Sequence record: PQ471460.1
Strand: one strand, 5' to 3'
DNA length: 64,000 nucleotides
Origin: Escherichia phage vB_EcoM_JE01
The first letter of the stretch is position 1; each line of letters begins with the position of its first letter. Below, piece by piece: positions 2,310-7,509 of this stretch. A program made the translations under genes and the position numbers. The notes beneath the pieces are model-generated. The model had not been told where the DNA came from. It made no database searches and was given only the letters and a program-made list of their open reading frames with translations.

Positions 2310-2867
2310 GTGAGTGAGTCGAAGAGAATCAATATGAAACGATTAGTACTAGAAGTTAGTTCACTTTTTGGTGAATTGGCTATAGAAAAAGTAAATAATA
2401 TGTATCGTTTGACGCAAGAAGACGATATGCTATATTTTACGCCTAGCGAAATTATTCATTTAACCCAAATTGAAAAACCTTACACTGATAAAATTGTAAG
2501 CATCAATGATGAGCATAAAATTCATTTTTATTCTTTATGCCCAGGATTTAACATTGAAAGCGAGTCAATATGCTTATCAATTAATAATTGGGATAATTTT
2601 ATAACTAAAATTAAATATTTTTATTATTCTAATGAAAGAAAACATAGTTTAAAATGGCTTAAAAATTGCAATGCTATTATTACTAACGCTTGTGATCGGA
2701 ATGATGAAACTGTTTTAAATGTATCAAAATGTTATGAAGAGGGAGATGTCTTAACTATTCGTCAAATTGATGATTTTCGATCACATATTGTCACATTTAC
2801 CAAAGACGAAGCTATTGCGCTAAAGACTTATCTTGATTCTGTCATTCCAACTATGATTTCAAAGTGA
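2310..2867 (+). CDS. hypothetical protein, paralog of the next ORF
   Basis: 185-aa ORF (GTG start after AAGGAG); shares GFNIE-E motif and C-terminal ...AIALKTYLDSVIPTMISK with the next ORF (...AEAMIKYLTTVTPSMKG). Confidence 0.6.
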   Translation: MSESKRINMKRLVLEVSSLFGELAIEKVNNMYRLTQEDDMLYFTPSEIIHLTQIEKPYTDKIVSINDEHKIHFYSLCPGFNIESESICLSINNWDNFITKIKYFYYSNERKHSLKWLKNCNAIITNACDRNDETVLNVSKCYEEGDVLTIRQIDDFRSHIVTFTKDEAIALKTYLDSVIPTMISK

Positions 2868-2873
2868 GGAAAT

Positions 2874-3395
2874 ATGTTTATTTCAAGTGAAAGTGGTTTA
2901 ATTCGTGTTGAATTTAAAAATGACATCTTCCTTATTCAAGGAGATGATATTATTAAAATGAGTTATGATGAAATCAAGAAAATTTGTCATGCTCTTGAAA
3001 GTCATGGAAAGGAAAATGCTACTATTAATATAGGTGATTTATGGGTGACACTTTATGAAGTATCCGAAGGATTTAATATTGAAGATGAAAATAACATTTT
3101 AGCTATTGATAAAAGAAGTGATTTGTTTGATGTATTAAAAGTTTATGAACAATCAAACGGTGGAAGAAAAGCCGTATTGATTTATCAAAAACCGCATTCA
3201 TGTGGAACTGCTTCAATCATTTCAAATATTGAAGATGAAACTGATACCTATATGTGTGTTTTGAAAGCTGGTGGTGACCGTCATCCGGATTTTATTTCTA
3301 TTCGTCAAAACAATGGAGAAATTTCATTATCAAAATCAGAAGCTGAAGCTATGATTAAGTATTTAACAACTGTTACACCTTCAATGAAAGGATAA
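2874..3395 (+). CDS. hypothetical protein, paralog of the previous ORF
   Basis: 173-aa ORF; SD GAGGAAA; shared motifs with 2310-2867. Confidence 0.6.
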   Translation: MFISSESGLIRVEFKNDIFLIQGDDIIKMSYDEIKKICHALESHGKENATINIGDLWVTLYEVSEGFNIEDENNILAIDKRSDLFDVLKVYEQSNGGRKAVLIYQKPHSCGTASIISNIEDETDTYMCVLKAGGDRHPDFISIRQNNGEISLSKSEAEAMIKYLTTVTPSMKG

Positions 3396-3397
3396 TT

Positions 3398-3859
3398 ATG
3401 ATTATTAATGAAAACTCTTGGCATTATAAATTATTCAAAATGTTTAATGATGAATGGAAACGGCCTAAGACACTATGCGCGTATTTTTGGTCTATTGTTA
3501 TTCCTACATTTTTCGTTTCTTTTTTCGGATGTACTATACTCGCAGGTCTAACTATCATCTGTGCAGAAATCATACAGAAATGGCTTATTTTTGGTAGTTT
3601 ATGGACTCTTATTCCATCAGCATTTGTACTTGCCATTTTGCTTGTTTTACTTATTATTGGTTCATTTGTTATTCCTGCACAACTGCATGAAAAATATAAA
3701 GATTATAAATGGAAAAAGGATTATGCTTTACATGTAGAAAATATTGATAGGGCGTATAAAGGTTTACCTCCTATTCAACCCAAGAAGTCTATTATCGTCG
3801 AATTTTTAAAAGCTCGTAAAGCTAAAGTATGTCCTGTTATTGAATATAAGGCTGAATGA
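3398..3859 (+). CDS. predicted integral membrane protein
   Basis: 153 aa with at least three long hydrophobic segments. Confidence 0.6.
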   Translation: MIINENSWHYKLFKMFNDEWKRPKTLCAYFWSIVIPTFFVSFFGCTILAGLTIICAEIIQKWLIFGSLWTLIPSAFVLAILLVLLIIGSFVIPAQLHEKYKDYKWKKDYALHVENIDRAYKGLPPIQPKKSIIVEFLKARKAKVCPVIEYKAE

Positions 3860-4845
3860 TGAAAACAGTAATGAAAAGCTATTTTGGTAGTCATCTTTAT
3901 GGAACTTCTACTCCAGAATCTGATGTAGATTTTAAAGAAATCTTTGTTCCTCCTGCTCGCGATATTCTTATCGGAAATGTTAAAGAGCATATGAGTAAAA
4001 ACACTAAAGATGATATTGACCATGAACTATACAGTCTTAAGTATTTCTTTAAATTAGCAGCAGACGGTGAAACTGTAGCATTGGATATGCTTCACACTCC
4101 ACCTGAACTAGTAGTTAAATCTGATTTGCCTGATGTATGGAAGTTTATTCAAGACAATCGTTCACGGTTTTATACGACTAACATGAAATCCTATTTAGGA
4201 TATGTCCGCAAGCAAGCTTCTAAATATGGTGTTAAGGGTTCTCGTTTGGCCGCATTGCGTGATGTATTGAAAGTAGTTAATCAAATCCCCGATCAGTGGG
4301 TTGATTACCGAGAAGATGGAACACAAGGACAACGTCGTACTAAAATTGCAGATATTAAACACCGTCTTCCAGAGAACGAGTTCTGTGAATGGGTATTCCA
4401 TAACCACGAGAAAACAGGTCCTCAAACGTTCTATACTGTTCTTGGACGTAAGTACCAAACCACCTTGTCTTTAATCGAGCTCAAGCAATCTCTGAATAAG
4501 CTCGATGCGGAATATGGTGAACGTGCTCGTAAGGCTGAAGCTAATGAAGGTATTGACTGGAAAGCTCTGAGTCATGCTTATCGCGCAGGGTATCAATTGA
4601 TGGAAATCTACCAAACAGGTGATTTGGCGTTCCCATTGCGCGAAGCCTCTATCATTAAGCTGATTAAAGCCGGTGAATTACCATTTAAAGAAGTTCAAGA
4701 ACTTCTTGAAGATACTGTTGATTTGGTTGAAGTCCTAGCCATCCAGGCAGCTAAGAACGGTATGCCTGATAAGGTAGACATGAAGTTCTGGGACAAGTTC
4801 GTTGAAGAGGTATATCTTGAAAACCACCGAAGTTATTATAAATGA
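3856..4845 (+). CDS. predicted nucleotidyltransferase (Pol-beta superfamily fold)
   Basis: 329 aa; N-terminal GS-x10-DVD (YFGSHLYGTSTPESDVDFKEIF) typical of Pol-beta-type NTases, with a further acidic residue about 50 aa downstream (VALDMLH). Confidence 0.65.
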   Translation: MMKTVMKSYFGSHLYGTSTPESDVDFKEIFVPPARDILIGNVKEHMSKNTKDDIDHELYSLKYFFKLAADGETVALDMLHTPPELVVKSDLPDVWKFIQDNRSRFYTTNMKSYLGYVRKQASKYGVKGSRLAALRDVLKVVNQIPDQWVDYREDGTQGQRRTKIADIKHRLPENEFCEWVFHNHEKTGPQTFYTVLGRKYQTTLSLIELKQSLNKLDAEYGERARKAEANEGIDWKALSHAYRAGYQLMEIYQTGDLAFPLREASIIKLIKAGELPFKEVQELLEDTVDLVEVLAIQAAKNGMPDKVDMKFWDKFVEEVYLENHRSYYK

Positions 4846-4847
4846 TA

Positions 4848-4872
4848 GGGAGCCTTCGGGCTCCCTTTTTTG
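4848..4872 (+). terminator. rho-independent terminator (UUCG hairpin + T-run)
   Basis: gggagcc-ttcg-ggctccc TTTTTTG. Confidence 0.7.
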
Positions 4873-4894
4873 TTTAAAATGACGTCACAAAGTT

Positions 4895-4924
4895 GTTTAC
4901 AAGCATAAAGCTTTATGGTACTAT
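4895..4924 (+). promoter_or_regulatory. T4-type early promoter
   Basis: GTTTAC, 18 nt, TGGTACTAT; followed by conserved leader CAACTATCAACT. Confidence 0.6.
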
Positions 4925-4959
4925 ACAACTATCAACTGATGTGGATTTGGGGGAATAAA

Positions 4960-5109
4960 ATGAAAACTACGTTAATTGAAGTAAAAAAGTTGATTGACAC
5001 AGAAGAGATTTCAGCTTGTTTTGAAAATTTCTTAGAAGATGCAACTGAAGATAACGCAGTTTATCTCGCTCAGAAAATTATAGAAACATATTTGGAGCAG
5101 AATCAATGA
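4960..5109 (+). CDS. hypothetical small protein
   Basis: 49-aa ORF downstream of the promoter. Confidence 0.4.
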   Translation: MKTTLIEVKKLIDTEEISACFENFLEDATEDNAVYLAQKIIETYLEQNQ

Positions 5110-5369
5110 CAGTTTACGTAGATGTTTTAATGAATCATGGATGGAAACTTCGCGGTCATCCAACTAAAAATTGTCATATGTTCACTGATGGAGATATTGA
5201 AGAGCTTCATGAAATGGCAGAAGCAATAGGAATGAAACGCTCTTGGTTTCAAGATAAACGCATTAAACATTATGACTTACACGCGCGCCGCCGCCAAAAA
5301 GCCGTAGAACTTGGAGCTGTAGAAGTATCTCGTCGCGAAGCAGTAAAAATTTGGCGAACATTAAAATAA
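5106..5369 (+). CDS. hypothetical protein
   Basis: 87-aa basic ORF (ATGA overlap); no confident family assignment. Confidence 0.55.
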   Translation: MTVYVDVLMNHGWKLRGHPTKNCHMFTDGDIEELHEMAEAIGMKRSWFQDKRIKHYDLHARRRQKAVELGAVEVSRREAVKIWRTLK

Positions 5370-5372
5370 ATT

Positions 5373-5402
5373 GTTTACAGTAGGGTAGTAGTGTGATACT
5401 AT
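5373..5402 (+). promoter_or_regulatory. T4-type early promoter with stem-loop
   Basis: GTTTAC ... TGATACTAT; inverted repeat tagggta/taccct flanks the -10. Confidence 0.55.
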
Positions 5403-5438
5403 TACCCTATCAAAACAAATGTTAAATTGGAGAATAAA

Positions 5439-6407
5439 ATGAAAACTGTAACTATCAATAAGGGTATCTACTTCGGTAAAGAAATCTCTGGAACTTTTGA
5501 GCTCTTAGGCGAATGGTTCCCAGATAATGCTCCGGTAGATGCACAGGGAGATGGTAAAGTTTTTGTTGAAATTGACGGTAAACGTCGCGGTGTTTGGGTT
5601 TACAAATCAGATATTTCATATGATGGTGTAAAAGTTGAAGAAGTTAAAGAATCATATGAAGATATGAAAACCCGCATTAATAAAAGATTTAATGTTATGG
5701 GAATGATGACGAATGGTATTATTAATGGAAATATTCGTTCATTGATTATCTCTGGCGCAGCAGGTATTGGTAAAACGTATTCTTTAGATAAAGCTTTAAA
5801 TAAAGCAAATGATAATGGATACATTGAATATAAAAGCATTAACGGTAAAATCTCTGGTATTGGTCTTTATGAGCAGCTTTGGAATAATCGTGAAGAGAAT
5901 TCTGTCCTTTTGATTGATGATGTGGATGTTTTCTCTGATATGGACATTCTTAATCTTCTAAAAGCTGCTCTGGACACTGGAGAGACCCGTAAAGTCTGCT
6001 GGAGTACTGCGTCTTCTTACTTAGAAGAAAAAGGCATTGAGCGTGAGTTTGAATTTAAAGGAACGATTGTTTTTATCACAAACGTTGATATTGACCGCGA
6101 ATTAGACCGTGGTACTAAACTTGCTCCACACCTACAAGCATTAGTGTCCCGCTCAGTTTATTTAGATTTGGGTGTTCATACTAATGAAGAAATTATGGTC
6201 AGGGTTGAAGATGTTATTCTTTCAACTGACATGATGCAAAAGCGCGGTCTTTCTGATGAAGAAACTTATAAAGCATTATCATGGATGAAAGTTAATGTTA
6301 ATCGTTTACGCAATGTTTCACTGCGTACTGCTCTTTATCTTGCTGACTTTATTATGACCGACAAAAACGGTTGGGAAGAAATTGCTGAAACGGTATTATT
6401 AAAATGA
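5439..6407 (+). CDS. predicted P-loop NTPase (AAA-like ATPase)
   Basis: 322 aa; Walker A GAAGIGKT and Walker B LLIDDVD; SD GGAG before ATG. Confidence 0.65.
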   Translation: MKTVTINKGIYFGKEISGTFELLGEWFPDNAPVDAQGDGKVFVEIDGKRRGVWVYKSDISYDGVKVEEVKESYEDMKTRINKRFNVMGMMTNGIINGNIRSLIISGAAGIGKTYSLDKALNKANDNGYIEYKSINGKISGIGLYEQLWNNREENSVLLIDDVDVFSDMDILNLLKAALDTGETRKVCWSTASSYLEEKGIEREFEFKGTIVFITNVDIDRELDRGTKLAPHLQALVSRSVYLDLGVHTNEEIMVRVEDVILSTDMMQKRGLSDEETYKALSWMKVNVNRLRNVSLRTALYLADFIMTDKNGWEEIAETVLLK

Positions 6408-7123
6408 AAAAATATTTTACTATCTATAAAACTGAAATATTAAATTTAAAGACAGGTATTAAGAAATACTATTATGGTCGACATATAACTAATAACATCA
6501 ATGATTCGTATGTTGGTAGTGGAAATTATATAGAACGTGTAAAAGTGTCAAATGACCACATATTATCAAAAACGGTTTTAGAAGTTTTTGATAATTATGA
6601 TAAAATGGTACAAGCTGAAATATTATATATCATGGCAGGTAAATTGAAATATGGAAAAAACTGTGTTAACCTGTCATACGGGGGTGAAGGAGGAAAGGTT
6701 GCAGATGAAACTAGGATAAAATGCAAAAAGCATTCTATAAATTTATGGAAAAATCCTAATCATATACAGCATATGAAGAAAAAGATGAAAGAGGTTACAT
6801 CCACGCCGGAAGCTAAATTAAACACTTCAATAAAAACTTCGCAACGATATAAGGACCCAGTTTTTGTTAGAAAAGTTAGTAATATTATTAAAAAGAAACT
6901 AAGCAATCCTGCAGTAAAAGAAAAGCATATTAATGGAATTAAAGCTGCAAAGCGTTCTCATTTAACTATATGGCAGTATGAAGATGAATTATTCGAGCTT
7001 TGGAAAGAAACTAAATATGGATGGAGAAAATTTACAAAGGAAGCTATAAAACACGGATATCCAAATGAACCGTATCGTAGTATGGTATCAACTTTTCAGA
7101 AAAGACATTTAGAAGAATCCTAA
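6404..7123 (+). CDS. putative Seg-like (degenerate GIY-YIG) homing endonuclease
   Basis: 239 aa, lysine-rich and AT-rich; N-terminus FTIYKTEILNLKTGIKKYYYGRH resembles GIY-(10-11)-YIG; C-terminal basic repeats typical of DNA-binding modules. Confidence 0.5.
   Translation: MKKYFTIYKTEILNLKTGIKKYYYGRHITNNINDSYVGSGNYIERVKVSNDHILSKTVLEVFDNYDKMVQAEILYIMAGKLKYGKNCVNLSYGGEGGKVADETRIKCKKHSINLWKNPNHIQHMKKKMKEVTSTPEAKLNTSIKTSQRYKDPVFVRKVSNIIKKKLSNPAVKEKHINGIKAAKRSHLTIWQYEDELFELWKETKYGWRKFTKEAIKHGYPNEPYRSMVSTFQKRHLEES
6404..7123 (+). mobile_element. putative free-standing homing endonuclease gene
   Basis: Same ORF as above; compositionally distinct from neighbours. Confidence 0.4.
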
Positions 7124-7206
7124 GACAAAAAAGGCAGTTCAGAAATAGATTATATGGACTGCCATTAAAAAGATGACTAGAACTAAACTGGTGAATGGAG
7201 GTAGTG

Positions 7207-7509
7207 ATGTTATACTCAAAGGCTCGTGAAATTTACGAAACTAAAATTAAAGAAGCTGTATTTCAGTTCGCAACAACGATGCGATGGACAAATGATTGGG
7301 AGTATTCAAAAAATCATAAGAAGCCCCTGGTGACAAGAAAGGCTCATATGTTAGTGTTAATAGACCGTGAGCAGATTAAAGCCCGAGAAGCCCTCCAGAA
7401 TCATAAAAAGGCTGCCTTTGAATGGTTTATGGATAACACTGCTCCTGAGACTAAGAAAGTGGTAAGTGCTTGGTTCAGTGGAAAAAATTGTGAAAGAAGT
7501 TTCTTTTAG
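7207..7509 (+). CDS. hypothetical protein
   Basis: 100-aa ORF with SD GGAGG upstream. Confidence 0.5.
   Translation: MLYSKAREIYETKIKEAVFQFATTMRWTNDWEYSKNHKKPLVTRKAHMLVLIDREQIKAREALQNHKKAAFEWFMDNTAPETKKVVSAWFSGKNCERSFF

Follow-up and report, generated by a model that had tools for sequence, protein, structure and literature searches.

What does a nucleotidyltransferase (NTase) carried in the accessory region of a T4-like phage act on? The question is raised by a 64,000-nucleotide stretch of Escherichia phage vB_EcoM_JE01 (PQ471460.1; the whole stretch is called the window below), in which a plus-strand open reading frame (ORF) at 3856–4845 encodes a protein of 329 amino acids (aa). An initial annotation, made from the sequence alone, regarded the product as an uncharacterised Pol-beta-type NTase that was not recognised as a named T4 protein and whose substrate was open. 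The ORF is the ortholog of T4 nrdC.11, a Pol-beta-superfamily nucleotidyltransferase, and almost certainly belongs to the RlaP family, in which it represents a long form; the gene is already known, as a named T4 ORF in a named family whose likely activity has been published. By analogy with two assayed bacterial relatives, we give a probability of about 0.6 to the reading that NrdC.11 is an RNA 3′-end fill-in enzyme working between Pnk and Rnl1 in tRNA repair; that it adds nucleotides to RNA 3′ ends in some form is distinctly likely.

Orthology and family membership

The window is part of a T4-like (Tequatrovirus) genome, oriented along early transcription, and its genes run in the order tk (79–372), rI.1, rI, rI.-1, mobD.x genes, the NTase ORF, nrdC.10 and nrdC.9. 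T4 NrdC.11 (NP_049709; NC_000866 55435-56445; 336 aa; product ‘nucleotidyltransferase’) aligns with the window protein over its full length with 85% identity (284/336), carries the same motifs and occupies the same place between the mobD/rI/tk side and nrdC.10/nrdC.9. Identity to Tequatrovirus copies, including those of vB_EcoM_P8 and Killian, is 97–98%. The ORF therefore does correspond to a named T4 protein, contrary to the initial annotation, but to one that itself lacks experimental characterisation. The proposed accessory-island setting is borne out, as the ORF lies in the plastic tk–nrdC region of a T4-like genome.

Assignment to the Pol-beta NTases likewise held, on matches well past anything that chance would give. 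The protein scores 51.4 bits with Pfam PF10127 (RlaP, ‘RNA repair pathway DNA polymerase beta family’; cutoff 23 bits, E = 1.6e-13), in an alignment spanning aa 7–127 only, and also matches the PHROGs family phrog_388 (‘nucleotidyltransferase’, E = 5e-131). Homologues were found in 1,570 of 50,697 phage records and in protein clusters at 90% identity (3,284) and at 50% identity (3,871, of which 774 match with E ≤ 1e-30 and are essentially full length). A precomputed PF10127 assignment was present on 120/120 homologues among the matches listed.

Domain architecture and conserved residues

The protein begins with MMKTVMKSYFGSHLYGTSTPESDVDFKE, from an ATG at 3856, and its stop codon ends at 4845. 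Its N-terminal Pol-beta-type NTase domain (aa 1–127; 3856–4236, plus strand, as are the features that follow) carries G11-S12 (3886–3891), D23-x-D25 (3922–3930) and D55 (4018–4020), together with K48-N49, D53, G71 and D77. The segment G11-S12-HLYGTSTPES-D23-V24-D25 is an exact GS-x10-DVD, the textbook signature noted at the outset, and the protein shows the full Pol-beta signature (hG[GS], DxD and a third conserved Asp). An alignment of 140 diverse relatives served as the family profile and is the basis for the conservation, loop-length and hhalign results reported here. Each of G11, S12, D23, D25, D53, D55 and D77 (95%) is kept by at least 94% of these relatives. Conservation of at least 90% extends in the N-terminal domain to G11, S12, L14, Y15, G16, S22, D23, D25, K27, P32, N49, D53, D55, G71, D77, W95, Y116, Q120, K123, Y124 and K127, and beyond aa 127 to G128, R130, Y220, G221, R223, A227, D234, W235, K236, A237, H240, A241, R243, P260, K271 and G273. 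The rest of the protein had been thought devoid of obvious motifs; the residues from Y116 to K127, and all but the alanines of the second set, contradict this.

The third acidic residue that had been placed about 50 aa downstream of the signature does exist, as D77, but D55 is the better candidate for the third catalytic carboxylate, by comparison with related enzymes, because the position of D77 is E or V in two canonical RlaPs, the KDD(I/V/L)D strand that holds D53 and D55 is kept in both, and T4 NrdC.11 has N53 but retains D55. D55 sits on β-strand 54–60 of the predicted model. In KNTase, the third metal ligand, E76, is on the second strand of the hairpin after the DxE strand. Alignment of the family profile with KNTase by hhalign (sequence checked against 6un8) pairs G11/S12–D23/D25 with G38/S39–D50/E52 and covers only this GS..DxD segment (E = 0.14); because it stops there, the assignment of D55 stays inferential. 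The T4 reference (NC_000866 55435-56445) encodes N where the window phage and 94% of the family carry D53, and it contains an ambiguous base (N) inside nrdC.11, which gives an X in the protein.

The NTase domain is followed by a clade-specific alpha/beta insertion (aa ~131–222; 4246–4521), recognised from the hhalign gap, the model and the length distribution, and by a C-terminal helical domain (aa ~223–329; 4522–4842) homologous to the RlaP C-terminal domain, with the motifs D234-W-K236...H240-x-x-R243, P260 and K271-x-G273. Two canonical RlaPs of ~250 aa, from Bacillus thuringiensis and Curtobacterium plasmids, were compared with the family profile by hhalign. Profile positions 6–317 aligned with 17–248 of the 253-aa protein at 99.6% probability (E = 9e-24), and the second RlaP gave 99.0% (E = 9e-18). 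These alignments run end to end apart from aa ~131–222, the sole block that is unaligned in both short RlaPs, and with helices 206–328 of the model they support a two-domain architecture shared with canonical RlaPs. The structure was modelled with AlphaFold from the 140-sequence alignment; a run with 11 sequences gave a predicted local distance difference test score (pLDDT) <50 at residues 1–59.

The RlaP family, including the Pseudomonas enzymes PfRlaP and PaRlaP (PMC12776372), shares with the window protein the GS...DxD NTase core, the KDDxD strand, the GY...Q helix and the C-terminal D-x-K...H-x-x-R domain. The crystal structure described there comprises an NTase domain and a helical domain with a conserved cleft, a two-domain architecture that the window protein matches. 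Canonical RlaPs differ in lacking both the ~90-residue insertion and the clade-specific basic residues K123, K127, R130 and R223, which are conserved and flank it. In the model the insertion contains strands 147–151, 157–161, 177–184, 188–195 and 198–201, and its length, counted from R130 to Y220, is 65–101 residues across the family. An insertion profile (aa 126–226) matched no Pfam domain and no PDB sequence, the best hit being the MTR4 arch at a non-significant E of 0.02; neither the whole protein nor the family profile had a match in PDB sequence searches. A long-form homologue of 338 aa on a Deferribacter megaplasmid matches positions 2–246 of the 249 in the RlaP profile.

Several variants of the gene occur in other records. 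The form in vB_EcoM_005 is 303 aa long and lacks 33 insertion residues, RB49-type copies match in two pieces with 71% of the query covered, and the 159.7-kb ‘T4’ record OL964745.1 retains only the last 35 codons. Such natural or engineered variants could test whether the insertion is dispensable.

Proposed role in tRNA repair and its alternatives

RlaP, according to PMC12776372 and PMC7824862, was named for its association with RNA-ligase genes. The role predicted for it years ago is to put back, ahead of ligation, nucleotides that cleaved RNA has lost, for instance the wobble base excised by RloC, as summarised for jumbo phages in PMC7824862. In a December 2025 preprint (PMC12776372), PfRlaP and PaRlaP labelled only RNA among E. 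coli macromolecules. In vitro they added one or two nucleoside monophosphates (NMPs), or their deoxy forms (dNMPs), to RNA 3′-OH ends, but not to DNA or to 3′-phosphate ends, with a preference for Mn2+ and for the broken 3′ end of an anticodon loop. They also partly rescued the aminoacylation of a tRNA short of one nucleotide (PMC12776372). The same work counts T4 NrdC.11 in the family, within a separate cluster, as an ‘RlaP of unknown function’. With two bacterial RlaPs assayed and a family prediction in print, the substrate is therefore much less open than had been supposed.

By analogy with these two enzymes, NrdC.11 would transfer one or two NMPs from a nucleoside triphosphate (NTP) to the 3′-OH of broken RNA, using a two-metal active site formed by D23, D25 and probably D55, in which G11-S12 would hold the NTP in position. 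In the proposed order of events, Pnk would remove the 2′,3′-cyclic phosphate and phosphorylate the 5′ end, NrdC.11 would then refill the nucleotide excised by a host RloC-type anticodon nuclease, and Rnl1 would ligate the ends after fill-in. This scheme starts from the orthology, family membership, fold and conserved residues established here; the RNA substrate, the number of nucleotides added, the cooperation with Pnk and Rnl1 and the host nuclease countered are what we infer. T4 Rnl1 is a ligase of the 5′-phosphate type. The 3′-OH product of RlaPs suits 5′-phosphate ligases (PMC12776372).

Enrichment of RNA-ligase genes near distant homologues is suggestive but weak. A same-strand cluster opening with RtcB contains the Deferribacter homologue. 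Distant viral contigs carry, within 6 kb of the homologue, an Rnl1-type ligase (one contig), RtcB (two contigs) or a Pnk-like kinase (two contigs).

In Vibrio phage 11895-B1 (NC_020843 94608-98724), genes for a Pnk-like ‘ATPase’, a CCA-adding tRNA nucleotidyltransferase, a 154-aa ‘hydrolase’ and the RlaP homologue follow one another on the same strand. The CCA-adding gene has an HNH endonuclease ORF inside it, its coding sequence being joined from two pieces, and the ‘hydrolase’ has no Pfam match. This is a possible RNA-end-repair cassette in a phage that is not T4-like. A ‘polynucleotide kinase’ beside the homologue in phage ESCO10 was set aside and not used as evidence; from its size, its position and the scrambled product names it appears to be a mis-annotated membrane-protein gene.

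Several points weigh against the tRNA fill-in reading. A literature search found no experimental work on any phage NrdC.11, and to that extent the description of the protein as uncharacterised stands. The assayed enzymes are short-form RlaPs without the ~90-aa insertion and belong to another sequence-similarity cluster (1a, against cluster 5 for NrdC.11; PMC12776372). The repair model has itself been partly tested, with data on aminoacylation and none on translation or in vivo (PMC12776372). The T4 block nrdC.11–mobD.3 can be deleted with viability kept (PMC9825161), and any role is therefore conditional. No Rnl1, Rnl2, Pnk or RtcB gene is present in the 64-kb window, and in T4 rnlA and pseT lie ~80 kb away from nrdC.11, so there is no operon link here; an RNA-ligase gene neighbourhood, which is behind the name of the family and is not required for Pfam membership, is thus missing from the window. 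When 138 ORFs neighbouring the homologue in 25 distant viral loci were scanned with Pfam, the association with RNA_ligase (2 ORFs) and RtcB (1) was modest; HD occurred in 4. Within T4-like genera, NrdC.11, Rnl1 and Pnk have almost the same number of records per genus, which fits co-retention yet is confounded by common descent. Lastly, this allele lacks eight loop residues common to nearly all relatives, and its activity may be impaired.

That last point bears on the allele in the window and is independent of the substrate of the family. T4, P8 and every close relative listed have 24 bp, encoding eight residues (SKNTNNTS), that are missing from this copy. In DNA alignments with P8 and T4 the missing segment is bounded precisely by two copies of TAAAAACACTAA, a 12-bp repeat, of which the lone remaining copy (3996–4007, plus strand) marks the in-frame deletion. 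Slippage or microhomology deletion leaves such a pattern, and an assembly artefact possibly could as well. The close relatives listed are 328–343 aa long, save P0076 (303 aa), in which part of the insertion is missing instead. The loop from P32 to N49 has 16 residues in the window protein, the shortest among the 140 family members (24–25 being typical); the deleted columns are filled in 94–99% of relatives and include a Thr found in 103/140. The exact protein is absent from a collection of about 15 billion sequences, and the T4 gene is dispensable in the laboratory. These points would suit a hypomorphic or inactive allele, crippled by the loss of eight residues in the β2–β3 loop of the NTase domain. 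We hold this to be doubtful: the deletion is in frame and spares one SKNT copy, including the near-invariant K48-N49, no catalytic or other conserved residue has been lost, the model is confident across the loop (pLDDT ~96), and the rest of the gene, at 97–98% identity to relatives, is without decay. An RNA 3′-end NTase with another target, whether in repair or tailing of the tRNA acceptor (CCA) end or in tagging of host or phage transcripts, is also unlikely, if slightly less so. RlaPs in vitro label rRNA-sized, full-length tRNA and cleaved tRNA species with little NTP specificity, but, given a mimic of cleaved tRNA, they favour the end at the broken anticodon loop over that of the acceptor (PMC12776372). 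Among the homologues, that of Vibrio phage 11895-B1 comes directly after a CCA-adding enzyme and a small ‘hydrolase’, HD-domain proteins lie near 4 of the 25 distant ones, and the clade-specific insertion could redirect specificity. The protein, however, gave no Pfam match at E ≤ 1 to PolyA_pol (PF01743), the family of CCA-adding enzymes and poly(A) polymerases, and the structural hits listed contain no CCA-adding enzyme, the eukaryotic terminal uridylyltransferases among them having TM-scores of at most 0.11. T4 tRNAs with no CCA in their genes rely on the cca enzyme of the host, a point against a CCA-adding activity of the phage.

Readings outside RNA repair draw on the fold. Structural hits were KNTase, LinB, ANT(4′) and MNT, the C-terminal helices resemble HEPN bundles, and in the model the NTase core most resembles the minimal HalB/KNTase/MNT group. 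Among the folds put forward in the initial annotation, MNT thus falls within the closest group, and CD-NTase, OAS and CCA-adding folds are unsupported; fold and profile comparisons placed the protein outside the CD-NTase/cGAS/OAS enzymes. NrdC.11 shares the architecture of KNTase/ANT(4′) (PDB 1kny, 6un8) and the MNT–HEPN group, in which the minimal NTase domain leads into a helical substrate-binding domain of HEPN-like form. An enzyme that nucleotidylylates a protein or small molecule, in the manner of aminoglycoside and lincosamide NTases, AbiEii/MenT-type toxins or the MNT antitoxins that AMPylate HEPN toxins, would suit this architecture, but the fold similarity is generic only. The NTP_transf_2 score (14.6 bits) is below its cutoff of 21, and no HEPN, AbiEi or MenA partner lies beside the gene, whose neighbours are y05I-like proteins, a membrane protein, DUF4031 and an AAA ATPase; we rate this reading as very improbable. 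Equally far-fetched is a HalB-like enzyme, in which the long-form RlaP, given a new specificity by its insertion, would be an untemplated synthase of free or protein-primed oligonucleotides that makes or mimics an inhibitory nucleotide or DNA signal, for instance as a decoy keeping a Hailong-type guard effector repressed. Its one point in favour is fold proximity to HalB, to which no sequence similarity was found even with the 140-sequence profile. Hailong HalB (PDB 9dbh/9dbj) has 217 aa and lacks the insertion, and neither its C-terminal priming tyrosine nor its HalA membrane partner is conserved in the NrdC.11 family. Tyrosine priming was rejected on these grounds, a Tyr occurring in the last six residues of 62/140 members at no fixed position. 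So was a HalA-like partnership with the overlapping protein of three transmembrane segments: 38 of 83 related loci, all 38 of them T4-like, have a homologue of that protein close to the NTase gene, often with an intervening ORF, and distant loci never do; there is therefore no conserved pairing of NTase and membrane protein. PADLOC returned no defence-system model, the sole match being PDC-S09 (E = 0.0024 over 18 residues), and the assayed RlaPs need a pre-existing RNA 3′-OH and add only one or two nucleotides (PMC12776372).

Surrounding region and significance

Five tightly spaced ORFs (2179–2307, 2310–2867, 2874–3395, 3398–3859 and 3856–4845) lie 3′ of a T4-early-type promoter-like site on the plus strand (2146–2174; TTTACA-17-TATAGT with TG upstream), which was found by promoter scan as a consensus match only. 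The ATG of the nrdC.11 ortholog overlaps the TGA of the upstream ORF (ATGA), and minus-strand ORFs within 3856–4845 are all short (47–87 aa). Two bases 3′ of the stop codon begins a GC-rich, intrinsic-terminator-like hairpin, picked out by a terminator scan, with an 8-bp stem (AGGGAGCC-TTCG-GGCTCCCT, followed by the T-run TTTTTTG; 4847–4872, plus strand), which closes the run of ORFs and is probably the end of the transcription unit. Judged from their sequence, promoter-like site, five ORFs and terminator would form one such unit. Within 2310–3859 are two tandem paralogues, of 185 and 173 aa, of a putative transcription factor of the T4 y05I/MobD.1 type; both carry PF24449 and PF24448, and T4 has a single copy. 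After them comes the membrane protein (153 aa, three predicted transmembrane segments, phrog_944), immediately 5′ of the NTase gene, where T4 has the HNH homing endonuclease mobD.

Downstream, the gap between the NTase gene and nrdC.10 (4873–5426) holds ~0.5 kb more than in T4, where the spacing is 114 bp. It contains two small ORFs that T4 lacks there, one of 64 aa (4915–5109, phrog_6888) and an 87-aa DUF4031 protein (5106–5369; PF13223, E = 8e-22; phrog_4887), as well as T4-early-like promoters at 4896–4924 (TTTACA-17-TACTAT) and, 5′ of nrdC.10, at 5374–5402. Between nrdC.10 (5427–6407) and nrdC.9 (7195–7509), a 239-aa ORF (6404–7123) overlaps the end of nrdC.10 by 4 bases; it belongs to the homing-endonuclease family phrog_314 (E = 1e-30), has no Pfam match and looks like a Seg-like mobile insertion, because T4 has only 95 bp there. 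A search of both strands of the window against Rfam gave nothing reaching the gathering score, and thus no group I intron or tRNA gene at that score; the corresponding region of T4 has an intron with I-TevII in nrdD. Near distant homologues, the 138 scanned ORFs also included NAMPT/NAPRTase (4), NUDIX (2), Pribosyltran (2), Band_7/SPFH (4) and Sir2 (1) matches, and in a KVP40-like Vibrio phage a NadM/ADP-ribose pyrophosphatase gene lies 4.5 kb downstream of the homologue. NAD-salvage genes thus recur near long-form RlaP genes, for which shared accessory regions may be the explanation.

Many GenBank and UniRef entries label the homologue and other nrdC.x ORFs ‘thioredoxin’, a label evidently propagated from the gene name nrdC.11; one record reads ‘HNH homing endonuclease’ and another ‘ArsR family regulator’, and in phage ESCO10 the product names are scrambled across the whole region. 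Exposure of the ‘thioredoxin’ mislabel on this nucleotidyltransferase is a by-product of the analysis.

The value of the gene as a discovery is small, with annotation in >1,500 phage genomes, a named family and a likely activity in print. For future work, the ~90-residue insertion with its basic flanks and the preference for D55 over D77 are the guides. RNA repair was first exemplified by the T4 Pnk/Rnl1 pathway, of which NrdC.11 may be an unrecognised third component; if so, it would be the answer of these phages to nucleotide-excising anticodon nucleases such as RloC.

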